Source: Escherichia coli O127:H6 str. E2348/69 | GTDB taxonomy: Bacteria; Pseudomonadota; Gammaproteobacteria; Enterobacterales; Enterobacteriaceae | Assembly: GCF_000026545.1 (NCBI RefSeq) | Contig: NC_011601.1 | DNA length: 64,000 nt | Reading direction: 5' to 3' (one strand) | In this document: in pieces, positions 6,248 through 19,469 of the stretch | Layout: the number at the start of each line of letters is the position of its first letter | Numbering within the stretch: position 1 is the stretch's first letter | Program-made: the position numbers and the translations under genes | Notes under the pieces: generated by a model | What the model saw: the letters and a program-made list of their open reading frames with translations, nothing else | What the model was told of the DNA's origin: nothing | The model's database searches: none

Positions 6248-6727
6248 ATGGGTAAAAAAACAGCACCGTTACTCCCTTATACGAATCAGATGCTTAGTGA
6301 ATTTGGTGAGCGGCTGAAACTTGCTCGTTTACGACGCAGGCTTACCGCAAAGCAAGTTGCTGAACGTGCTGGGATGTCGCCAATAACATTGCGCTCTCTG
6401 GAGTCAGGAAGTGCAGGGGTCACGATAGGGGCATATTTGTCTGTGATGCAGGTTTTGGGCCTGGAAACGGATTTAAATAAGCTTGCAGCTGAAGACGACT
6501 TAGGGCGTCAGCTCCAGGATTCCCGTTTGATTAAAAAAAGAGGGCTTTCTCGTTCATCAGGTAAAAATGAAGAAGGTATTCAGACAGACCCTTTTCAAAC
6601 GAGGTATGAGAAAGAAGGTTTACTCACCACGGATTTAACAGCACTGGCAGAAGGCTCAACGCCATCTATTACAGGAGAAACATCAACCTCTCTTGCAGCA
6701 CTATTAAAACCGATAAAAAACCGTTAA
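6248..6727 (+). CDS. Xre/Cro-type helix-turn-helix DNA-binding protein with long low-complexity C-terminal tail; HipB-like regulator of the downstream split-kinase module
   Basis: 159-aa ORF; N-terminal [32 protein letters not shown] is a classic Xre HTH; first gene of a three-gene co-directional cluster. Confidence 0.7.
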
Positions 6728-6740
6728 AAGGAAATTAATT

Positions 6741-7001
6741 ATGGCATTAATCGGAGTGTATGCGGATTGGGAAGGCCTGGATGGTCCGGAGCGGATTGGT
6801 TATTTACACAGTCGCCGCACTCGGACGCGTGAGATATTTGAGTTTGAGTACGATAAAAAGGCGCTTGCAGATCCTTCACTTAATTTCATTCAGTTAGATC
6901 CTGAAATAATGTTGTATGAGGGAGCACAGTACCCAATTCCTCCAAAGGATAAATTTGGTGCATTTAGTGATTCCTGCCCGGATCGTTGGGGCGTATGCTA
7001 A
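6741..7001 (+). CDS. HipA N-terminal subdomain-like small protein (HipS-like putative antitoxin)
   Basis: 86-aa ORF with AAGGA 8 nt upstream; contains ...FGAFSDSCPDRWG, resembling the conserved motif of HipA N-terminal domains; stop overlaps the next start (TAATG). Confidence 0.55.
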   Translation: MALIGVYADWEGLDGPERIGYLHSRRTRTREIFEFEYDKKALADPSLNFIQLDPEIMLYEGAQYPIPPKDKFGAFSDSCPDRWGVC

Positions 7002-8008
7002 TGAAGCGTCGTTTTGAGAGGGATATTCGAGACGGGTTATGTGATAAAGACTCCCACCTTTATGAGTCTGATTATCTACTAGGTGTTCATGATCTTTATC
7101 GGGTTGGGGCTCTTCGATACAAACGTGAAGACGCTGGAGAGTTTCTTGATAATCGCATTGATGTTGCAGCCCCACCATTTACCGAAATAGCGAGTCTGGA
7201 AAGGGCTAGCCGGGCAATTGAAGAAGATCCTGATAATAAAGAGCTAATGGGGCAAAAATGGTTAAGAATGCTAATCGCTCCGGGGGGATCATTAGGGGGG
7301 GCACGTCCGAAAGCCAGTGTTGTTGATGAAGCTGGGCATCTCTACATCGCTAAATTTCCCAGTGTAAAAGATGAGTATGATGTTGGTGGATGGGAAATGG
7401 TCGTTAATGCACTTGCTGTTGGCTGTGGACTGAATGTTGCACCTGCTCAGGCGCATAAATTTGCCAGCAATTACCATTGTTTTATGGTTCGTCGTTTTGA
7501 CCGCACTAATGCGGGAAGGCGTCTGCATTTTGCTTCGGCTATGACACTAACCAGGCATCAGGATGGTGAAGATGCCTCTACAGGTGTGAGTTATCTGGAA
7601 TTAGCAGATGTTCTTATCAGGCATGGCGCGCAGACTAATACTGATCTTAAGGAACTCTGGTCCAGGATTGTTTTTAATATTCTTGTTTCTAATACCGATG
7701 ACCATTTACGTAATCATGGATATATCTTGATACCGGGAAAAGGTTGGCGGCTTTCTGAGGCATATGATTTGAATCCTGTTGCCAGGTCTGACGGTCTAAA
7801 ACTCAATATTACAGAAAATGATAATGCACTTGATTTGGAATTAGCTCGAGAAGTTGCGGAGTATTTTCGACTTGGTTTGACAGAAGCAGATGACATTATT
7901 GCTAATTTTAGAGGGATTGTCAGTCAGTGGCGAATCATTGCCGAGCGTCTTCGATTACCTGGTCGTGAGCAAGAGTTAATGGCAGAGGCGTTCAGGGGGG
8001 CAATTTAG
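7001..8008 (+). CDS. HipA-family Ser/Thr kinase core (HipT-like putative toxin)
   Basis: 335 aa from ATG 7001 (ORF 6986-8008); Gly-rich loop GGSLGGARPKAS, catalytic-loop-like VSNTDDHLRNHG and downstream AYDLNP at HipA-like spacing. Confidence 0.65.
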   Translation: MKRRFERDIRDGLCDKDSHLYESDYLLGVHDLYRVGALRYKREDAGEFLDNRIDVAAPPFTEIASLERASRAIEEDPDNKELMGQKWLRMLIAPGGSLGGARPKASVVDEAGHLYIAKFPSVKDEYDVGGWEMVVNALAVGCGLNVAPAQAHKFASNYHCFMVRRFDRTNAGRRLHFASAMTLTRHQDGEDASTGVSYLELADVLIRHGAQTNTDLKELWSRIVFNILVSNTDDHLRNHGYILIPGKGWRLSEAYDLNPVARSDGLKLNITENDNALDLELAREVAEYFRLGLTEADDIIANFRGIVSQWRIIAERLRLPGREQELMAEAFRGAI

Positions 8009-8104: not shown

Positions 8105-8141
8105 ATAGAAACGCTACAAAGCTAAATTATAGCGTTTCTAT
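8105..8141. terminator. Inverted repeat (atagaaacgct / agcgtttctat) between convergent kinase gene and MFS transporter gene; probable bidirectional terminator
   Basis: 11-bp arms with about 15-nt loop in AT-rich context. Confidence 0.45.
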
Positions 8142-8150
8142 GTAAAATAA

Positions 8151-9428
8151 TTAGCTTGTCGCTAACTGTACTTGTGGTTCTTCGTCTTTAACTTTGATAA
8201 GCATCCACAGCGCAATGGCGCCAATAATGTCAAAGAAAGCCAGGGCAATAAAGAACGGCGCGAAGCCAATAATGTGAACGAATGCCCCGATAAACAGGTT
8301 GAAAATCAACTGACCGCTCCATGCACAGGCTCCTGCCATACCCACAGCGGTAGCTACTTCGTCTTTTTTGAATAGGTCACCGCCCAGAGTTGCTGCAACA
8401 GTAGAAAGACATTGATGCGAGAATGCGCCAATGCTAATCAGTAATACGGCGATGTAGGGATTTTCGACAATACTCACCAGACCAATCGTCATCATAATGA
8501 CGGCTGCAATAGTGAAGGTAATTCTTCGTGAGTTAATTAAACTCACGCCGCGATCGTGGAAGAACTTCGCGACAAAACCACTGGCTAAACAGCCGAGATC
8601 GCCCAGCAGGAAAGGCAGCCAGACGAACATGGCAATTTCTTTCAGGCTAAAATGCAGCGTTTCGACGAAGAAAATCGGTACCCAGAAGTTAATGGTTCCC
8701 CATGCCGGGTCAGCGAGAAAACGCGCGATGCCAATCCCCCAGAAATTACGTTGGCTGAGGATATGCTTGATTGACGTTTTTTCTTTCTTATCTGTTTTAA
8801 GATGCTGTTCTTGCCCAGACTCAATATAGTGGCGCTCTTCATCAGAAAGGCGTTTAGCATCTTTTGGATCTTTATAACAAAAGAACCAAAATAAAGCCGC
8901 GAGTAAAGCAAGGCTACCTGAGACAATAAACGCAAATTGCCAGCTATGAAACATAATGCACCAGGCAATCAACGGTGGAGCAAGCATCGCGCCGAGTGAG
9001 GTGCCCATATTGAAAACACCTGTCGCCACGCCACGCTCTTTTGCCGGGAACCATGTTGATGCGGTTTTTACACCCGCAGGAATTGCCGATGCTTCGCTGA
9101 AACCCATCAGGGCGCGCATAAATGCCAGACCTGACCATGTTCCTGTCAAGGCATGCCCCATTGTCGCCAGGCCCCAGATTGCGGCACATATCGCAAAACT
9201 TAACTTCAGACCCACGGTATCAATAAAGAAGCCCATTATCGGTTGCCCCAATGTATAGGCCAACTGGAATGCACTGACAATCCATGAATATTGTTCTTTG
9301 GTTATTCCGGTTGTCTCCATAATCGTTGGAGCCGCAATACCTAACGCCGTTCTGTCCAGATAATTGATTACAGTGATAAAGCATACGAGGGCAATCATAT
9401 GCCATCGATAATTCTTTATTTTATTCAT
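8151..9428 (-). CDS. MFS transporter, anion:cation symporter (ExuT/GudP-like) family; probable organic-acid importer
   Basis: 425-aa ORF, about 12 predicted TM segments, N-terminal ...YLDRTALGIAAP... typical of hexuronate/aldarate-type MFS permeases. Confidence 0.75.
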   Translation of the reverse strand: MNKIKNYRWHMIALVCFITVINYLDRTALGIAAPTIMETTGITKEQYSWIVSAFQLAYTLGQPIMGFFIDTVGLKLSFAICAAIWGLATMGHALTGTWSGLAFMRALMGFSEASAIPAGVKTASTWFPAKERGVATGVFNMGTSLGAMLAPPLIAWCIMFHSWQFAFIVSGSLALLAALFWFFCYKDPKDAKRLSDEERHYIESGQEQHLKTDKKEKTSIKHILSQRNFWGIGIARFLADPAWGTINFWVPIFFVETLHFSLKEIAMFVWLPFLLGDLGCLASGFVAKFFHDRGVSLINSRRITFTIAAVIMMTIGLVSIVENPYIAVLLISIGAFSHQCLSTVAATLGGDLFKKDEVATAVGMAGACAWSGQLIFNLFIGAFVHIIGFAPFFIALAFFDIIGAIALWMLIKVKDEEPQVQLATS

Positions 9429-9520: not shown

Positions 9521-11593
9521 TTATTGTGTGTAAATGTCTCCCTTTAAAAAGTCTGGCCAGTTTTTTTCAAAGTAAATACCGTTAATACACGGTTGAATAC
9601 GTAAAGACTTTACTTCGGTAATAAAAGAACCTTGCGAATATTGAATTGTTAATTTGTGATTTTTGTCTTCAGCGAGTTCAGAGCGAAAACGCCATTCTTC
9701 TTTTGCGCCGCGACGAGTTTGTGGTAGGCATTTGCCTTGTGGATCAATAACCATACGCGCCCCACGGCTACCACCACCAGCATCAATATAATGCGTTAAT
9801 TGTGTTAATACCGCGGCAGAAGTCAGCGCCATATGCCGCCACATAAACAGCTCGGCAACTTCACCCACATGTTTGATTGCCAATCCATGCCGTTGCACAA
9901 ATTCACTCAATAGCAGGGCATCACGAGTGGCGCGTCGGACTTTATCGGCATGGCAAATAAATCCCGCATGGTCAGACATTCGTGCCTGAATTTTTTCTCT
10001 CACAACCGACAACGGCATCCCGGTCCCGTTATCGTGCGCCTGAGTAATGATCTCTCTTATAGAAGCCAGTGCCGGAGCTGCCAGCTGTGCAATATCTCCA
10101 TCAATATTCCGCTTTTGCGTGCAACCAATAAAGCGCGCCAGACGAACAGCAAAAACCTGCCCGGCATTCAACGCCGCGCCGCCAGGTCGGGTGACGCCGT
10201 GTGTGCCAGCAACTTCCCCCACCGCAAAACAACCGGGCAGAGATGTTTGTCCCCAGATATCGACTTCAATGCCGCCATTCATGTGCTGATTATTCATGGC
10301 AAACTGCAATGGCTGCGTGATGAGATCGTAACCGTGCATCTTATACAGCGAGATAGACAGAGGATTCATTCGTTGCAGGCGTTCGATGGGCGATGGTGCC
10401 AGAGCGTCGTTATTTTCCAGATACGTGCGAACGTCGTCGTCCAGTCGATCTAATGAGAACGGCAGGTCACCCGGCACAGGTTCAGGATTGCGATTGAAAT
10501 CCATAAATACCTGACGCCCTGATTGCTGCTCTTGCGCCACCGCCATATCTAACAAGCTGGAGCCAAAATCCATTACCCGCGTGGCGTGGAATGGCCACTG
10601 ATAGCCTTTACGGAAGATGTTTGAAGCCAACTCCTGGGTGGTGCGATAGTAATCTGCGAGGAAGTTATACTCGTTGCCCCCAGCATCCACGGAATAGATA
10701 TATGGGATCACCTGTACATAGGTGCCGGACAAATTCCACGGAAACGTGCTGCGCGGTGTGCCGATACCAAACTGGCTTTCAGTCAGATTCGTTAACGTCA
10801 GACCTTCCTCCAGCGCCAGCCCCAGCGAGCCGAAACATTTGTGTGGATACACACTGTCGCGATAAAGCTCGCCAGGCCCGCCTGTTGCCAGTACCACATT
10901 GGGTGCAGTCACAATTGCCAGCCCCCATGGGTTATGGGCGCGATGACCGGTCGCGAGGATTGCCCCCGCCACACGGTCTTCACCGTTTTCGTCACGCTGA
11001 TGCAGCAGTTTAATCACTGTTGCACTGGTCAACATTGGGATAGCAAGACGCTGTACTTCTTCCAGCAGCACTTTCACCATTAACCTTGAGGTACGCGGCC
11101 CACACGAGGTTGCACGCCCGGCTTCGTCGTGGTCGGTTTGATAACGAAGAATCGCGCCATAGCGATCTTCCGGTAATTCCAGACCAAGATATTGCAACCC
11201 GCCAAGAGTGTGCAGAGAACCTACCGCTTCAACATAAGCGGTGTCGTGATCCATCGCCCCACCGCTCGCCAGTGCCTCTGCCAGTTTGGCGAAGTTGTCG
11301 CCGTTGCCCGCGGTAGCGGCGGTAAACAGTGTTTGTTTATCAGAGCCAGAACATGCCGACGTCCCCATATATAACCCGGCGGTGGCGATTAACACATTTT
11401 GCTGGCGGCGTTTAAGTTCCACAGCTGCACGCAGCCCGGCTGCACCACTGCCGACTACCAGGGCATCTGTTTTCCAGAGTGGGTAATCAACACCGTCTAC
11501 CGTGACAACCCATGCGGGGTCTGCCTGTGCAAAACCCTTTGGGAAAGTAACGTGCGTCAGCGCATCAAGGATGGTGTCATCAAGCTGACTCAT
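9521..11593 (-). CDS. FAD-binding oxidoreductase, fumarate reductase/succinate dehydrogenase flavoprotein-like (690 aa)
   Basis: N-terminal dinucleotide-binding motif DALVVGSGAAGLRAAVEL; large size; ATGA overlap with upstream CoA-transferase gene. Confidence 0.65.
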   Translation of the reverse strand: MSQLDDTILDALTHVTFPKGFAQADPAWVVTVDGVDYPLWKTDALVVGSGAAGLRAAVELKRRQQNVLIATAGLYMGTSACSGSDKQTLFTAATAGNGDNFAKLAEALASGGAMDHDTAYVEAVGSLHTLGGLQYLGLELPEDRYGAILRYQTDHDEAGRATSCGPRTSRLMVKVLLEEVQRLAIPMLTSATVIKLLHQRDENGEDRVAGAILATGHRAHNPWGLAIVTAPNVVLATGGPGELYRDSVYPHKCFGSLGLALEEGLTLTNLTESQFGIGTPRSTFPWNLSGTYVQVIPYIYSVDAGGNEYNFLADYYRTTQELASNIFRKGYQWPFHATRVMDFGSSLLDMAVAQEQQSGRQVFMDFNRNPEPVPGDLPFSLDRLDDDVRTYLENNDALAPSPIERLQRMNPLSISLYKMHGYDLITQPLQFAMNNQHMNGGIEVDIWGQTSLPGCFAVGEVAGTHGVTRPGGAALNAGQVFAVRLARFIGCTQKRNIDGDIAQLAAPALASIREIITQAHDNGTGMPLSVVREKIQARMSDHAGFICHADKVRRATRDALLLSEFVQRHGLAIKHVGEVAELFMWRHMALTSAAVLTQLTHYIDAGGGSRGARMVIDPQGKCLPQTRRGAKEEWRFRSELAEDKNHKLTIQYSQGSFITEVKSLRIQPCINGIYFEKNWPDFLKGDIYTQ

Positions 11594-13131
11594 GCATCCT
11601 CCATCGGCGTAAACAGGCTGCTTTCCATCAGACGTGGGTGCCTGATAATCGGACGGAAGGCCATGAATGGCAGAATGTCGCGCTCAATCTCTACGCCAGG
11701 GGCGATCTCAATTAATTCAACGCCTTCTGCCGTTAACTGGAATACCGCACGTTCGGTGATATACAGCACTTCCTGACCGCTTTGCTGTGCGTAGGCGGCG
11801 CTAAAGGTGATTTTTTCCACCAGGGCAACCAATTTAGGGATTTGACCTGACTGGGCGATATGCAAGCCATCTGGCGTTACATCAATCTTGCTGCCTTTGG
11901 CGTCGAACGTACCGCAAAACACCACTTTACGGGCGTTTTGTGCAATTTCGAGAAATCCGCCGGGGCCAATGAGATTGCCATTAAGATGGGATACGTTGAC
12001 GTTACCGTACCGATCCATCTCTCCCATGCCGAGGAAGGTGATATCGATACCGCCGCCACTGTAGAATTCGAATTGATCGAGTGATGGAATAATGGCATCG
12101 GCGTTACGGGCGCAGCCGAACAGAGCATCATCCAGCATCATGCCGTTATGTACACCCTGTTCTACACTCAGCCACAAACTTTGATAAGGCACGCCTTCGC
12201 GCAGCGCAACCCCAGGAATACCGCCGGGAATACCAAAGCCAAAGTTGGTTGAAGCGCCTGCCACCAGTTCCCGCGCTGCCCGACGGGCAATCAGGCGACG
12301 CACCGGATGACTAACCAGTTCAATAGCGTCGTTAGAACTTAGACGGCGATGTTGACCGCTGATGGTCAGGTCGTAACCGCCAAGATAGGTTTGCGGTTGT
12401 TCGCGGTGCTCAACGATGCCATCGACCAGAATTCCTGGTAGCTTGACCCGACGTGGTTCAATGGTACCTGCTTCCAGCACATCGCGGACCTGTACGAACA
12501 CTTTGCCGCCGCTGTTGTGTGCTGCCAGCGCCATCGAATAGCTATCCATATAAATCGCTTCTTCTTCGAGGCTAACGTTGCCTCGTGGATCGGCATAAGT
12601 GCCACGCAAAATCGCGTAATCCACTTTGAAAGGGCGATAACGAAGTTTGGTCTCACCGTCGATTTCAATCAGTTCTACCAGGTCGTCGGTAGTGCATTCA
12701 TTCGACTTACCGCCGCCATTGCGTGGATCAACAAACGATCCCAGCCCAACGTGGGTAAAAAGCCCCGGACGTCCGGCACCGATCTCCCGCAGCAGTGCCT
12801 GAATTACGCCACCAGGGAAACAGTAGGCTTCAATAGCATTGCTTTTCACCAGTTCCTGCATCTTGGGCGACCAGGTAAAATGTCCGGCAATAATGCGTTT
12901 GAGCATTTCGGCGTGAGCAAAACGGTTAGTGCCTTTGCTGTCGCGATCGCCAATACCCAGCGAGTGGATTAATGTCAGATCGCGCGGGTGTCCGGTTTGC
13001 AGGAAACGCGCTTCAATGGCGGCCAGAATATGGTCAGCTTCCACCATACCGCCGCCGTTACCGCTAATGGCAATGGTTGCGCCGTCCTGAATTTGCGCCG
13101 CCAGTGTCTCGGCGGTTGATAACTTACGCAT
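11590..13131 (-). CDS. Family I CoA-transferase (acetyl-CoA hydrolase/transferase, fused alpha/beta, YdiF/Pct-like)
   Basis: 513-aa ORF MRKLSTAETLAAQIQDGATIAISGNGGG... with the glycine-rich CoA-transferase N-terminus and duplicated domain architecture. Confidence 0.7.
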   Translation of the reverse strand: MRKLSTAETLAAQIQDGATIAISGNGGGMVEADHILAAIEARFLQTGHPRDLTLIHSLGIGDRDSKGTNRFAHAEMLKRIIAGHFTWSPKMQELVKSNAIEAYCFPGGVIQALLREIGAGRPGLFTHVGLGSFVDPRNGGGKSNECTTDDLVELIEIDGETKLRYRPFKVDYAILRGTYADPRGNVSLEEEAIYMDSYSMALAAHNSGGKVFVQVRDVLEAGTIEPRRVKLPGILVDGIVEHREQPQTYLGGYDLTISGQHRRLSSNDAIELVSHPVRRLIARRAARELVAGASTNFGFGIPGGIPGVALREGVPYQSLWLSVEQGVHNGMMLDDALFGCARNADAIIPSLDQFEFYSGGGIDITFLGMGEMDRYGNVNVSHLNGNLIGPGGFLEIAQNARKVVFCGTFDAKGSKIDVTPDGLHIAQSGQIPKLVALVEKITFSAAYAQQSGQEVLYITERAVFQLTAEGVELIEIAPGVEIERDILPFMAFRPIIRHPRLMESSLFTPMEDA

Positions 13132-13140
13132 ACAATTTCC

Positions 13141-13923
13141 TTATTGATTGTGGAAGCTCACGCCGGCTTTTTCGGCAAATGCGTGCGTCGCCTGTTGGCA
13201 ATCCTGAGTGGCGGACATTAATCCAGCCAGTAACTGGTGGGAGTAATCGGCGTGTTTATTTTCCAGCGCCAGAATCAGTTGCTTAATATGTGCCAGTGCC
13301 ACCGGACCACATTTTTCCAGCTGCGCTAACTGGTTCACCATCCAGCTTTCCACCTGTTCTTTTTCTACCACTTCATCAATTAAATTCGCTGTCTGAGCTT
13401 CCTGCGCCGTCAGGCGTTTACCCAGCATCAGCATCTGGCGACCGACCACCGGGCCAACCTGATTAAGCACGCGTTCAATGCCCATCCAGCCAGGCACCAT
13501 GCCGAGCATCACTTCCGGGTTAGAGAATTTCGCGCCGGGGCGAGCGATACGAATATCACAGCACAAGGCGAGTTCAATCCCACCGCCAATGGTATGACCG
13601 TTGAGATTTGCAACCGTTAATTGGGGTAAATTGCGCAGGCGATTAAAAACCTCGTTACCGCGTTTAATCCATTTTCTGCCCATATCTAATGGCGAATAGG
13701 CCGACCACGATTTAATATCGCCGCCCGCACAAAAGAATTTATCGCCGGTTGCCGTTAATTCGACTAATCGTAATGTGGTGTCGTTTTCAATTTCATTTAA
13801 ATAATGGTCGAGAGATTCGATCATTTCTTCATTAATAGCATGACATTTATCTTCACGGTTCAATGTCAGGCGGCAAGAAGCCGCCGCTCTGCTGAACAGA
13901 ACGGGTTGGTCATTCATGATCAT
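13141..13923 (-). CDS. Enoyl-CoA hydratase/isomerase (crotonase) family protein
   Basis: 260-aa ORF; ...DKFFCAGGDIKSW... and ...NGHTIGGGIELALCCDIRIA... match the crotonase oxyanion-hole segments. Confidence 0.75.
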   Translation of the reverse strand: MIMNDQPVLFSRAAASCRLTLNREDKCHAINEEMIESLDHYLNEIENDTTLRLVELTATGDKFFCAGGDIKSWSAYSPLDMGRKWIKRGNEVFNRLRNLPQLTVANLNGHTIGGGIELALCCDIRIARPGAKFSNPEVMLGMVPGWMGIERVLNQVGPVVGRQMLMLGKRLTAQEAQTANLIDEVVEKEQVESWMVNQLAQLEKCGPVALAHIKQLILALENKHADYSHQLLAGLMSATQDCQQATHAFAEKAGVSFHNQ

Positions 13924-13926
13924 TCC

Positions 13927-14769
13927 TTAACAATAATGTGCGATGCGATCGACGCTAATATCCAGCGTGCTGTTAATATCTTTCTGCCACCAGTACGGTG
14001 AGAATATTTCCAGTTCAATAGCGCCATTAAATCCGGCGTTTTCAACCAGCCGACGAATTGACGGAATATTGATGACACCATCTCCCGGCATTCCACGGTC
14101 ATTGACCAGATCGGTGGTCGGCACTAACCAGTCGGAAACATGAAACGCGAGGATGCGTTTTCCGGCACGCAGGATCTGACTGGCGAGATCCGGGTCCCAC
14201 CAGACATGGTAGACATCTACCGCCACGCCGAGGCCAAATTCGCCATCGGGATCGAGTTCATCACACCAGTCCAGCGCCTGACGTAACGTGCACAGACAAG
14301 AACGATCGGCAGCAGTCATCGGGTGCAGTGGCTCCAGTGCAATTGGCACGCCGACCTCTTTCGAATGTGGCAGCAACTGGCGAATCCCTTGTTTCACCTG
14401 TTCCCGTGCTTCGTACAGATCTTTTGTTCCCATTGGCAGACCGCCAACCACCTGCATATAACAGGCGGCGTTCAGTACAGCGGCGTCGTCCAGCGCCCGG
14501 CGGTTATCGTCAATCGCCAGTTTGCGCTCCGCCAGCGTCGGTGCGGTGTAGTAGGTGCTACGGCACAAACCGGAAACGTTCATGTTACTGGCAGCAAGCT
14601 GGCGGGCGATTTGCTGGAGATCTTCACTCTGCAACTCCCTGCGCCAGGGGGCAATCGCGCCAATACCGCGTGCGGCGCAGGCATCAATAATGGCGGGTAG
14701 CGGCGTTTTATAGCCCAGTGTCGCGGTATTGATACTGAATAAATCCGGGCGTTGTAACAGATCTCTCAT
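13927..14769 (-). CDS. Sugar-phosphate isomerase/epimerase (xylose isomerase-like TIM barrel) family protein, possibly a dehydratase
   Basis: 280-aa ORF with ...LAFHVSDW... and ...IELEIFS... typical of the AP-endonuclease-2/xylose-isomerase-like fold. Confidence 0.6.
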   Translation of the reverse strand: MRDLLQRPDLFSINTATLGYKTPLPAIIDACAARGIGAIAPWRRELQSEDLQQIARQLAASNMNVSGLCRSTYYTAPTLAERKLAIDDNRRALDDAAVLNAACYMQVVGGLPMGTKDLYEAREQVKQGIRQLLPHSKEVGVPIALEPLHPMTAADRSCLCTLRQALDWCDELDPDGEFGLGVAVDVYHVWWDPDLASQILRAGKRILAFHVSDWLVPTTDLVNDRGMPGDGVINIPSIRRLVENAGFNGAIELEIFSPYWWQKDINSTLDISVDRIAHYC

Positions 14770-14778
14770 GATTCAGCC

Positions 14779-15570
14779 TCAGAAGCGCGGCATACTTAAG
14801 CCGCCGTCGATGGCGACCGCCTGACCACAGGTGTAAATCAGTTTACCTTCCGCCATCGCGCGGACAGTGGAAGCAATATCAGCCGGATAACCCCAACGTC
14901 CCCACGGCACCAGACCTTTGGCAATCAGTTCGTCGTAATAGGCCGTTGCCGGAATAGTCATATCGGTTTTGATGAGACCAGGACGCACTTCATATACGCC
15001 AATTTGTTCATTACAAAGGCGAGCAGCAAACAGACGAGCAGCGGCAGAGACGGCAGTTTTGGCAATGGTATATTCGCCGCGATTCATCGCCAGCATGATG
15101 GCGTTGATGGAACTGACAAAAATAATCGAGCGGTGCGGCAGTTCTGCTTCCGGTTTCGGCTGTGCCAGTAAGCGCTTACTGAATGCCTGAGCAAGGAAGA
15201 ACGGTGCGCGGGTGTTAATGGCAATATTTTGGTCGAAGCTGTCTGGTTCGAGGTCGAGAAGGTCACCGCGTTTTTTCACTGAAATGCCTGCGTTGTTGAG
15301 CAGGCAGTCCAGACGTCCCCACTGGTTTTGCGCTGCGTCGAGCATCTCTTCATGCAGGGAGAGATCGCCCACATCAGCAGGGAAGCAAATCACTTCCACG
15401 CCTTCCGCCAGACATTCTTGTTGTGTGGCATGTAATTTTTCTACGCTATCGGCATCCGGACGATCATTAATCAGCAGATTAAATCCGCCACGCGCAAGCT
15501 CCAGCGCACAGCCTTTTCCAATACCACGTGCGGCTCCGGTAATCACGGCAACAGGACGAGTGGATTTCAT
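14779..15570 (-). CDS. Short-chain dehydrogenase/reductase (SDR)
   Basis: 263-aa ORF; cofactor motif VAVITGAARGIGKG, NNAG, and catalytic Y-x3-K (EYTIAKTAV). Confidence 0.8.
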   Translation of the reverse strand: MKSTRPVAVITGAARGIGKGCALELARGGFNLLINDRPDADSVEKLHATQQECLAEGVEVICFPADVGDLSLHEEMLDAAQNQWGRLDCLLNNAGISVKKRGDLLDLEPDSFDQNIAINTRAPFFLAQAFSKRLLAQPKPEAELPHRSIIFVSSINAIMLAMNRGEYTIAKTAVSAAARLFAARLCNEQIGVYEVRPGLIKTDMTIPATAYYDELIAKGLVPWGRWGYPADIASTVRAMAEGKLIYTCGQAVAIDGGLSMPRF

Positions 15571-15639: not shown

Positions 15640-15661
15640 ATCAACCATCTAGTTGGTTGAT
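15640..15661. promoter_or_regulatory. Inverted repeat ATCAACCA-N6-TGGTTGAT in the divergent SDR/TetR intergenic region; candidate TetR operator
   Basis: 8-bp perfect arms read directly; about 70 bp upstream of the SDR start and about 120 bp upstream of the TetR start. Confidence 0.45.
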
Positions 15662-15783: not shown

Positions 15784-16431
15784 ATGTATCTTGATACCAG
15801 CAACGTACAGAGCCTGAAAGAAAAGCTGCTGTTATGCGCGGTTAATGAATTTGCCGAATATGGTTACGAAGGGGCCAGAGTCGATAATATCGTCAAGGCC
15901 GCGGGGTGCAGTAAACAGACGGTTTATCACCACTTTGGTAATAAAGAAAATTTATTTATCGAAGTACTGGAATATACCTGGAACGATATTCGACAAAAAG
16001 AAAAGGCCCTTGATTTCTCAGATCTTCCGCCACAGAAAGCCATTGAGAAAATAATCGATTTTACATGGGATTATTATATTTCTAATCCCTGGTTTTTAAA
16101 AATTGTGCATAGTGAAAATCAAAGTAAGGGTGTGCATTATGCAAAATCACAGCGTCTTTTAGAAATTAACCATGCGCACTTGCAGTTAATGGAATCCTTA
16201 TTGGATGAAGGGAAGAAACAAAATATTTTTAAGCCAGATATCGACCCATTGCAGGTGAATATTAATATTGCTGCGCTTGGGGGATATTATTTGATCAACC
16301 AGCATACGCTTGGCCTGGTTTATCACATCAGTATGGTTTCACCGCAGGCACTGGAAGCCAGACGTAAGGTCATCAAAGAGACAATCCTTAGCTGGCTTTT
16401 GGTTGACCCTTCATCTACCGCGCGCGAATAA
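15784..16431 (+). CDS. TetR/AcrR-family transcriptional regulator
   Basis: Internal ATG of ORF 15712-16431; N-terminal ...[44 protein letters not shown]... is a canonical TetR HTH. Confidence 0.8.
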
Positions 16432-17919: not shown

Positions 17920-19469
17920 CTGTCTCTTATACACAAATCCCCACCCGGGGATTTGTGATGTCTGTCAGTCTGCTTTAGGGGGACTCTTTCCATCCGGTAG
18001 TTTCCTTCCTCCCCGGCAGCGATTTTTTGAACTTTTTCCTCACCTGTTGATCTTCTCTTATATTTCATTTTCTTCGGGTCTGTTATGGTACTTTCTGATT
18101 GTTATTCATGGGCTAACGAGCAGTTTGGACATGCCCGTCTCGGTGATCCGCGTCGTACACGACGCCTTGTGTCACTGGCCTCTTCTCTCGCTCAGCATGC
18201 AGGTCTTTCTATTGTGAAATCATCCCAGTCCACTGCTCAGGTTGAAGGTGCGTACCGCCTGATACGTAACCCGTCTGTGTCCCCGCAAGCCATTGCCGAA
18301 GCCGGATTTACCGCCACTGTAAGGGCATGTGAGGCTCATCCGCTGCTCCTCGCGCTGGAAGACACCACCACCATTAACTTCAGTCACAGTACGGCATCTG
18401 ATGACCTGGGGAATACCACCACTAACCCGAAGACGCGCGGGCTGCTGGCTCACTCTGTCCTGATGTACGCCCCCGACAGCGCCCTGCCAGTCGGTCTTAT
18501 CGAACAGCAGCGCTGGAGTCGTGCCACGGACACCTACGGTGTTAAGCACCAGCGAAAAGAACGTCCCTATGAAGAAAAAGAAAGTTACCGCTGGCAGCAG
18601 GCTTCGGAGCGCATGGCCGAACGGCTGGGGGAGATACAGAAACGGGTAATCACTGTCTGTGACCGGGAAGCGGATATCTGGCATTACCTGCATTATAAAG
18701 TCAGCCACGGGCAGCGCTTCGTGGTGCGTGCAGCACAGAATCGCCGGCTGGAAGAAGCACCCGGCAAGCTCTTCGAACTGCCGGAAGTCCTGGCAACCGC
18801 GGGAAGCCACACGCTGAATGTGATGCAAAAAGGCGGGCGGGCAGCCCGCCAGGCCCGGATGTTCATCAGTTACAGCGAAGTCAGCATAAAAAATCCCGAC
18901 AACAGCGGCCAGGCGCTCCCGCTCACGTATGTCTGTTGCCGGGAGCAGGCAGAGGACGGCGCCTGCTGGCATCTGCTGACGTCAGAAAAAGTGGCGAGTG
19001 CCGCCGATGCGCGACGTATCGTCAGCCATTACGAGCGACGCTGGCTGATAGAGGAATACCACAAGGCGTGGAAAAGTGGTGGTACATGTGTGGAATCGCT
19101 GTGAATGCAGACCCGGGATAACCTCGAGCGCATGGTGGTTATCAAGGCGTTTATCGCGGTGCGGGTGCTGGGCCTGCGGCAGGGCGGTATCAGTGAAGAA
19201 ACACAAAATGACAGCTGTGAGAAAATACTGACGCCGACAGAGTGGAAACTGCTGTGGGTTAAGCTGGAAGGAAAACCGCTTCCGTCACAGATGCCGACAC
19301 TGAAATGGGCCTGTCTGAAACTGGCGAAACTGGGGCGATGGCATGACAGCAAACGCACCGGTCGCCCCGGTTGGGTAGTCATGTGGGATGGCTGGTTCAG
19401 ACTTCAGGATATGGTTGAGGGTTACCTGGTGATGAAGTCTCTTGATCAGGAGATCTGATCAAGAGACAG
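17920..19469 (+). mobile_element. IS50/Tn5-like insertion sequence (IS4 family) with diverged transposase
   Basis: Left end CTGTCTCTTATACACAAAT (2 mismatches to the Tn5 outside end as I recall it); right end is the exact reverse complement of the Tn5 inside end CTGTCTCTTGATCAGATCT; flanked by direct repeat cgaaccag; internal Tn5-Tnp-like ORF. Confidence 0.85.
18085..19458 (+). pseudogene. Tn5-like transposase interrupted by an in-frame TGA at 19102-19104 (ORFs 18085-19104 and 19105-19458, same frame)
   Basis: N-fragment LGDPRRTRRLV...EGAYRLIRNP...LALEDTT...CDREADI...RRWLIEEYHKAWKSG closely resembles Tn5 Tnp including the DDE positions; C-fragment DNLERMVV...AVRVLGLRQ... continues the alignment after the stop. 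Confidence 0.7.

Follow-up and report, generated by a model that had tools for sequence, protein, structure and literature searches.

A stand-alone flavoprotein of Escherichia coli E2348/69 represents a conserved, cross-phylum NadB/SdhA-clade family with a predicted non-canonical active site and a possible role in carbohydrate-acid catabolism

In the present study, we analysed a stretch of 64,000 nucleotides (the window) from contig NC_011601.1 of Escherichia coli O127:H6 str. E2348/69, in which a large FrdA/SdhA-like flavoprotein gene had been noticed from the sequence alone (hereafter the original prediction). The gene was confirmed at 9521..11593 on the minus strand, where it starts with ATG and encodes a product of 690 amino acids, the size first given (RefSeq WP_000080318.1, 'FAD-dependent oxidoreductase'). 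The product is a flavin adenine dinucleotide (FAD) oxidoreductase of the NadB/SdhA/FrdA fold, and the N-terminal FAD motif already pointed out, VVGSGAAGLRAA, corresponds to its residues 46-57. In the order of transcription, the minus-strand genes encode a short-chain dehydrogenase/reductase (SDR), a triosephosphate isomerase (TIM) barrel protein, an enoyl-coenzyme A (CoA) hydratase, a CoA-transferase, the flavoprotein and a major facilitator superfamily (MFS) transporter. The ATGA overlap described between the CoA-transferase and flavoprotein genes is real: the ATG of the flavoprotein gene occupies 11593-11591 and the TGA of the CoA-transferase gene 11592-11590, an overlap of 4 nt (junction '...GGAGGATGCATGAGTCAG', read from the sequence). 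A GGAGG Shine-Dalgarno element of the flavoprotein gene lies at 11598..11602 (minus strand), within the 3' end of the CoA-transferase gene and with a 4-nt spacer to the ATG. The identical 4-nt overlap is present in Klebsiella and Salmonella. Two predicted E. coli polypeptides, P0003 (1078 amino acids) and P0030 (1043 amino acids), carry both CoA_trans and FAD_binding_2 domains and presumably represent read-through or frameshift at the ATGA junction. All neighbours were annotated by Pfam, NCBIfam and RefSeq (MFS, CoA_trans, ECH, AP_endonuc_2 TIM barrel, SDR, TetR and a HipA pseudogene), and, as had been stated, no gene for an iron-sulfur (Fe-S) or membrane-anchor subunit was adjacent. A scan of all six frames for CxxCxxC, made for a hidden Fe-S subunit, returned short spurious open reading frames only. 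The authentic frdABCD of E2348/69 is located about 47 kb from the flavoprotein gene.

The SDR (14779..15570, minus strand) passes the PRK12745 equivalog of NCBIfam with 420.6 bits against a cutoff of 250 and is the most conserved partner of the family. The TIM barrel protein (13927..14769, minus strand, 280 amino acids) is an AP_endonuc_2 (xylose-isomerase-like) isomerase, epimerase or dehydratase (Pfam E 1.2e-37). In the PDB it matched 3qc0 and 3ju2 (Sinorhizobium SMc04130, E 1e-85), which are uncharacterised structural-genomics entries, and 7vpf ('xylose isomerase', E 6e-62); a literature search found no published function for its relatives, 7VPF included. Its best NCBIfam matches were weak and were keto-acid isomerases and epimerases (IolO, Hyi and 2-oxo-tetronate isomerase). 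The enoyl-CoA hydratase (13141..13923, minus strand) is a short-chain crotonase (Pfam ECH_1, E 5e-46) with both catalytic Glu motifs intact; its closest solved structure was the 3-hydroxypropionyl-CoA dehydratase 5zai (E 2.8e-40), and GGGIELAL and NPEV fall on the catalytic motifs. The CoA-transferase (11590..13131, minus strand, 513 amino acids) is a fused alpha/beta family-I enzyme of the YdiF/Pct type (Pfam CoA_trans; YdiF 2ahu, E 9e-116), which scored 380 bits, under the cutoff, against the FadX-like family of NCBIfam. Taken together, a YdiF/Pct-like transferase and a 5zai-like hydratase point to a short-chain acid. The transporter gene (8151..9428, minus strand) encodes an MFS protein of the anion:cation symporter group resembling the D-galactonate transporter (Pfam MFS_1; TIGR00893, 314 bits). 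After it, a strong intrinsic-terminator-like hairpin with a 15-bp stem and a T tract (8105..8141, minus strand) closes the six-gene transcription unit; generic scans for sigma-70 promoters and terminators gave no enrichment over shuffled sequences.

A TetR/AcrR regulator (TetR_N and TetR_C_29 by Pfam) is encoded divergently at 15784..16431 on the plus strand (RefSeq coordinates), and the same TetR type adjoins the SDR gene in other enterobacterial and metagenomic loci. The divergent intergenic region between the TetR and SDR genes contains, at 15640..15661, a 22-bp palindrome (ATCAACCATCT/AGTTGGTTGAT), an inverted repeat of 91% complementarity which occurs once in the window. An alignment with E. 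albertii, K. oxytoca and S. enterica showed a conserved core, with changed flanks in Klebsiella and Salmonella; a search for the exact palindrome in the other loci found it in E. coli only. It is a likely candidate for the TetR operator. Related TCAAC..GTTGA half-sites were also seen in the intergenic regions of Brenneria and Pseudescherichia.

For classification of the flavoprotein, FAD_binding_2 was the sole domain found by Pfam (residues 43-475, E 2e-26). This domain annotation had been named beforehand as a check of the flavoprotein assignment, and it gave no sign against flavin binding. All NCBIfam equivalogs were well under their cutoffs: TfrA with 123 against 718 bits, SdhA/FrdA (TIGR01812) with 81.7 against 567.3, and NadB with 99.2 against 452.75 (TIGR00551) and 107.6 against 639 (PRK07804). 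Foldseek aligned the full-length fold with FrdA (E 1.5e-31, TM(target) 0.78), and the nearest structural neighbours were L-aspartate oxidases. The protein is thus a full member of the NadB/SdhA/FrdA clade, including the C-terminal helical domain, with extra segments of about 40 residues at the N-terminus and about 70 at the C-terminus. A sequence search of the PDB reached an E-value of only 3.7e-08, so no family member has been solved. The view of a soluble orphan flavoprotein is supported by these results, but the relatives that the original prediction had named (UrdA-like and KstD-like enzymes) are not the closest ones.

The catalytic residues were mapped by hhalign profile alignment of the family with the FrdA of the same genome (99.4% probability). 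The carboxylate clamp of the FAD domain is kept, with H437 at the position of FrdA H355 and R469 at that of FrdA R390. FrdA H232, the catalytic residue of the capping domain ('QYHPT'), is replaced by G276 ('QFGIGT'), and the proton donor R287 ('LGPRD') by S345 ('GSSLID'); both replacements are invariant across the 82 sequences of the family. The same two positions correspond to H244 and R290 of NadB. In the soluble FAD_binding_2 reductases that act on fumarate, urocanate, methacrylate or acrylate, Motif I (R402/H504/R544 of Fcc3) is conserved together with its proton-donor Arg, and Motif II determines specificity (bioRxiv 10.1101/2022.01.20.477176). The flavoprotein retains only the His and Arg of Motif I (H437 and R469), with S345 in place of the proton donor R402; hence the enoate-reductase class that had been suggested for it is not borne out in its canonical form. 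Since H232 and R287 are replaced, the protein, as judged from its sequence, is not a fumarate reductase, a succinate dehydrogenase, an aspartate oxidase or a canonical enoate reductase. The His that binds FAD covalently in FrdA (H44) has no counterpart: 'RSHTV' faces 'GTSAC', and no His occurs in residues 70-90 or in the consensus. Along with the missing partner genes and no evident signal peptide, this is the pattern of a soluble protein, and its FAD is predicted to be non-covalent.

These data also bear on whether the gene is a cryptic or alternative paralogue of fumarate reductase, succinate dehydrogenase or L-aspartate oxidase. Superfamily membership fits such a paralogue, and some orthologue entries are indeed named 'succinate dehydrogenase flavoprotein subunit', but the explanation is effectively refuted by the family scores (123 vs 718, 99 vs 453 and 82 vs 567), by the loss of H232 and R287, by the lack of an Fe-S partner and by the authentic frdABCD in the genome. 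The original prediction had set the protein apart from respiratory complexes, and the TIGR01812 score, the absent Fe-S partner and the two lost residues agree with it.

An exhaustive homologue search over 1.84 billion representatives found 3143 homologues, of which 415 had E<=1e-30, many aligned end-to-end at 35-59% identity. By genome scan, the family loci span Enterobacteriaceae, beta-proteobacteria, Rhizobiales, Rhodobacteraceae, Planctomycetota/Phycisphaerae, Lentisphaerota and Verrucomicrobiota, with further loci in Clostridia, Bacteroidia, Aminicenantes and others. Twenty-five signature residues, mostly polar, do not vary among the 82 sequences, which include the E. coli protein: S79, S84, D85, T88, T153, D154, Q274, G276, S289, G290, Y292, Q294, K329, W333, S345, S346, D349, R405, N410, Q436, H437, N439, E460, R469 and R610. 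They form motifs such as GSDKQT, QxG, WNLSG, KGYQWP, GSSLxD and QHxNGG, as well as R469. This invariance argues for a single conserved reaction in the family. The names given to these proteins in a collection of 15 billion proteins are generic only ('FAD-binding protein', sometimes 'succinate dehydrogenase flavoprotein subunit'), and a literature search on the locus or module turned up nothing relevant. The flavoprotein therefore belongs to a broad, cross-phylum and uncharacterised subfamily of the NadB/SdhA/FrdA clade. We propose it as a new SDR-associated family of this clade, recognisable in sequence by the signature residues and a PRK12745-type SDR neighbour, both of which the E. coli protein has.

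To describe the genomic context, 81 non-redundant loci (+-7 kb) were compared by tblastn with the E. coli operon proteins, and the neighbouring open reading frames were clustered and annotated by Pfam and NCBIfam; the labels L002 to L083 below denote single loci. An orthologous SDR gene was found in 35 of the 81 loci (directly adjacent in 14), Gfo/Idh/MocA in 29, a KdgK-like PfkB kinase in 22 (every one adjacent), glucose-methanol-choline (GMC) oxidoreductases in 20, LacI in 18, flavoproteins of the old yellow enzyme (OYE) type in 16, 2-keto-3-deoxy-6-phosphogluconate aldolase (Eda) in 15 and an orthologous TIM barrel in 12, with three more distant ones. CoA-transferase and enoyl-CoA hydratase were each present in four loci, and an SdhB/FrdB-type Fe-S or anchor partner in none of the 81. 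Several syntenic classes could be recognised. Pseudescherichia, Mangrovibacter and Phytobacter carry TetR / SDR-Gfo-TIM-MFS-FAD and Brenneria carries TetR / SDR-TIM-FAD. Gfo-TIM-SDR-FAD, in varying order, is found in one beta-proteobacterium, Lentisphaeria, Opitutia/Coraliomargarita and one planctomycete. Alpha-proteobacteria have LacI and Gfo-FAD-PfkB with a sugar ATP-binding cassette transporter and two GMC genes, Phycisphaerae have (OYE-4Fe4S-NAD protein)-SDR-Eda-BNR_4-FAD-PfkB, and Clostridiales, Bacteroidia, Aminicenantes and some Phycisphaerae have (TIM)-OYE-FAD-SDR. NCBIfam identified the aldolase as Eda, placed the PfkB kinase near KdgK and gave levoglucosan (sugar C3) dehydrogenase as the family most similar to the Gfo encoded next to the flavoprotein gene. 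Like the SDR of E. coli, its planctomycete counterpart passes the PRK12745 equivalog (331 bits).

Some distant loci show additional arrangements. OYE-like flavin mononucleotide oxidoreductases are adjacent (8-16 distant loci) or directly upstream (L081 8527-9999, L063, L079 and L083), and a Phycisphaerae cluster (L074 5676-8324) encodes an 880-amino-acid OYE-4Fe4S-NAD(P) protein alongside the flavoprotein relative. One representative, P0149 (1084 amino acids), is an OYE::FAD fusion. These fusions and neighbours suggest either that electrons are fed in from NAD(P)H or that a second ene-reductase step takes place; in the E. coli polypeptide Pfam detected FAD_binding_2 alone and no electron-input module. 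Furthermore, a BNR_4-repeat protein of about 500 amino acids is encoded immediately upstream of the flavoprotein gene in L052 (8457-9995) and also in L059, L076 and L077; the BNR_4-bearing Phycisphaerae clusters also hold SDR, Eda and the KdgK-like kinase. The BNR_4 protein is possibly a glycan-active enzyme, a hint at a polysaccharide origin of the substrate.

The overlap with the CoA-transferase gene had been taken to suggest a CoA-thioester substrate, and in this reading the flavoprotein would act as an enoyl-CoA reductase or acyl-CoA dehydrogenase surrogate on a thioester made by the transferase, replacing acyl-CoA dehydrogenase (ACAD) and electron-transfer flavoprotein (ETF), with the hydratase and SDR finishing a beta-oxidation-like or acrylyl-CoA-like sequence. 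The translation of the two genes is coupled by the overlap and the internal Shine-Dalgarno element, an arrangement kept in Klebsiella and Salmonella, and the E. coli operon has a CoA-transferase, a competent hydratase and an SDR with no ACAD. The transferase and hydratase also recur together near family members in L012, L032, L045 and L069, and analogous logic is documented for Anaerostipes oxcT-ecdH-acaD, where an operon of a Pct-type CoA-transferase, an enoyl-CoA hydratase and a dehydrogenase handles 3-oxopropionate from inositol cleavage (PMC8355322). The wider comparison speaks against this reading. No CoA enzyme lies within 7 kb in 77 of the 81 loci, and the CoA-transferase-associated flavoproteins are polyphyletic: those of L032 and L045 have their nearest relatives (69-77% identity) in loci without CoA-transferase, and that of L012 has its nearest relatives (61-64%) in Gfo-type clusters. 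All signature residues are the same in flavoproteins with and without an associated CoA-transferase, and the orthologous enterobacterial clusters (57-59% identity) carry Gfo in place of the transferase and hydratase. The retained His/Arg pair, moreover, clamps a carboxylate in every relative characterised so far (bioRxiv 10.1101/2022.01.20.477176). In the betaproteobacterial L012 (13-12109), the order is CoA-transferase, hydratase, DctPQM, MaoC, ACAD, ETFbeta, ETFalpha, TIM and FAD, with a separate OYE gene 3.5 kb downstream, which means that a canonical acyl-CoA dehydrogenase system coexists with the TIM-FAD pair. The rarity and polyphyly of the loci with transferase and hydratase leave the CoA-thioester inference of the original prediction weak, and we consider the surrogate reading quite unlikely. 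The conserved core is SDR/TIM/(Gfo)/FAD, and CoA chemistry accompanies it as an accessory of particular lineages; a CoA thioester is unlikely as the substrate of the family, and a free carbohydrate-derived carboxylate is more likely.

On this basis, our preferred reading, to which we give a probability of roughly 45% as a whole, is that the flavoprotein is a non-covalent-FAD oxidoreductase in a carbohydrate-acid module, with a free sugar-derived acid and not a CoA thioester as its substrate. The cytoplasmic enzyme, independent of Fe-S and anchor subunits, would perform one redox step of a catabolic module together with the PRK12745-type SDR and the AP_endonuc_2 TIM-barrel isomerase/dehydratase, joined in most lineages by a Gfo/Idh/MocA dehydrogenase. 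The substrate, of the sugar-acid or keto-deoxy-acid type, would enter through the acid-type MFS or a tripartite ATP-independent periplasmic (TRAP) transporter, and expression would probably be controlled by the divergent TetR via the 22-bp palindrome. Its carboxylate may dock on H437 and R469, and hydride would be exchanged between N5 of FAD and the carbon beta to the clamped carboxylate. Binding and proton transfer, the roles of FrdA H232 and R287, may be taken over by the capping set S289, Y292, Q294, K329, W333, S345, S346, D349, R405 and N410. The most likely chemistry would be at C-alpha/C-beta (C=C <-> C-C), beyond the reach of the NAD-dependent partners, given that alcohol dehydrogenases dependent on NAD are already part of the module, which is also linked to OYE ene-reductases. 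In other phyla the pathway would then enter a KdgK-like kinase and Eda aldolase, functions for which E. coli presumably relies on its core genome. Escherichia, Klebsiella and Salmonella lack the Gfo; here the YdiF/Pct-type CoA-transferase and short-chain hydratase between TIM and FAD probably (de)hydrate or otherwise process a small acid intermediate by CoA cycling of the CaiB/CaiD type. Pairs of CoA-transferase and enoyl-CoA hydratase able to (de)hydrate an acid in this manner are CaiB/CaiD and AcuN/AcuK.

We also weighed a NadB-like oxidation at a heteroatom, in which C-OH (or C-NH2) at the carbon beta to the clamped sugar-acid carboxylate would be oxidised, for example to a keto acid that the TIM barrel isomerises, with electrons passing to O2, a quinone or a partner flavoprotein. 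In its favour, L-aspartate oxidases are the closest structural neighbours, the Arg that protonates C-alpha is absent with invariant Ser/Ser/Asp instead, the polar or aromatic nature of the invariant capping residues is what one would expect of a polyol-binding site, and the weak matches of the TIM barrel to keto-acid isomerases and epimerases agree with such a product. Nevertheless, one or two NAD-dependent alcohol dehydrogenases (SDR and Gfo) make a flavin-dependent third less necessary, and the association with OYE-type modules, including the one OYE fusion, fits C=C chemistry better; we regard this oxidation as unlikely.

Several points weigh against the preferred reading of C=C chemistry on a free acid. 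The family is without any characterised member, so that substrate, reaction direction and electron partner are all inferred. The translational coupling of the CoA-transferase and flavoprotein genes is conserved in three genera, and transferase and hydratase lie near the gene in four further lineages, which leaves some probability to CoA-level chemistry in the enterobacterial enzyme. The lost proton-donor Arg counts against a straightforward enoate reductase, and in NadB, the nearest structural neighbour, the bond oxidised is C-N and not C-C. Nor does the E. coli operon encode an evident partner that could donate electrons to the flavin or accept them from it. As substrates, the reductive metabolism of quinate/shikimate, unsaturated uronates, keto-aldonates (kgu-like), inositol-type cyclitols and 3-hydroxypropionate/acrylate were weighed without decisive evidence, and none was chosen.

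Of 5426 complete E. coli genomes, 3136 (about 58%) carry the flavoprotein gene; the full MFS-type island was counted in 1659. The protein cluster of the flavoprotein at 90% identity has 5032 members. In Klebsiella oxytoca and Salmonella enterica, the rplI-ytfB site is likewise occupied by the identical island of seven genes. In many other E. coli strains the MFS gene is replaced by a TRAP transporter, DctPQM (compare L002 3895-6990). E. coli has two flavoprotein alleles, whose identity is about 98% as far as residue ~612 and drops to about 55% beyond it. The GC content falls from 0.54 to 0.43 at the divergence, in the segment 8151-9750, which comprises the MFS gene and the last ~80 codons of the flavoprotein gene. 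The identity break and the coincident GC drop point to a recombination junction inside the 3' end of the flavoprotein gene, travelling with the transporter. Between rplI and the MFS gene, a type II toxin-antitoxin pair of helix-turn-helix and HipA-like genes (6248-8008, plus strand) was seen, both frameshifted pseudogenes according to RefSeq, in a region of low GC that the island lacks in Klebsiella and Salmonella. Just downstream of fklB lies an ISEc13 IS4-like transposase pseudogene with an internal stop (18085-19458, plus strand).

More than half of sequenced E. coli, including the enteropathogenic E2348/69, and lineages of Klebsiella and Salmonella carry this six-gene operon, probably controlled by TetR, at a fixed chromosomal site. 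What is new here, as far as the sequences tell, is a cross-phylum family of the NadB/SdhA clade that is strictly conserved and departs from the canonical active site. It is possible, though we hold it with considerable reserve, that the family performs a previously unrecognised flavin-dependent carbohydrate-acid step from Enterobacteriaceae to Planctomycetota, a C-alpha/C-beta or beta-carbon redox reaction on a free acid; equally tentative is the joint claim that this step, with the PRK12745 SDR and the TIM-barrel enzyme, feeds a KdgK/Eda-type end-pathway. If so, the rplI-ytfB island would give about 58% of E. coli and the Klebsiella and Salmonella lineages access to an acid from the diet or the host, in addition to the known carbon or electron-acceptor sources of E. 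coli, and the enterobacterial insertion of CoA-transferase and hydratase would be a lineage-specific rerouting. Naming the reaction of the flavoenzyme would add a specificity class to the fumarate-reductase/aspartate-oxidase superfamily and could reveal a nutrient or electron-sink niche for gut Enterobacteriaceae and marine polysaccharide degraders. The TetR regulator and its candidate operator palindrome provide an experimental handle on the inducer.

Compared with known systems, the protein shares with FrdA/SdhA the full-length fold, the GxGxxG motif, the equivalents of H355 and R390 and the C-terminal 'SRG' motif (R610), but its identity is only 18% and it has no covalent-FAD His, no H232/R287 and no FrdB/C/D-like genes nearby. 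It differs from NadB in that the R290/H244 equivalents are Ser and Gly, in scores of 99-108 bits against cutoffs of 453-639, in a larger capping domain and in a context of sugar catabolism instead of NAD synthesis. With Shewanella Fcc3, UrdA, the Klebsiella NADH:fumarate reductase (KpFRD) and Vibrio ARD, it would share solubility, a non-covalent FAD and the use of the Motif I His/Arg to bind a carboxylate; KpFRD and ARD further resemble some relatives of the family in having an OYE-like module fused or adjacent. Like KstD, delta4-(5alpha)-KSTD and cyclohexanone dehydrogenase, which are FAD_binding_2 desaturases acting beside a carbonyl, it stands alone without Fe-S partners. The acyl-CoA deoxyribonate pathway of Klebsiella michiganensis was considered and set aside, as it is a different locus without an FrdA-like protein; that cluster encodes CoA-synthetase, hydroxyacyl-CoA dehydrogenase, thiolase and glycerate kinase (PMC6365646). 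The E. coli operon, with its CoA-transferase and short-chain hydratase beside a flavoenzyme and a transporter, recalls the carnitine system CaiB/CaiD, the acrylate system AcuN/AcuK and OxcT/EcdH of Anaerostipes (PMC8355322). It differs from these CoA-cycling modules in that the flavoenzyme is of the FrdA fold and not an ACAD, and in that the SDR/TIM/FAD core is widespread without the CoA module. The transferases CaiB and AcuN belong to family III, whereas that of the E. coli operon is a family I enzyme of the YdiF type.

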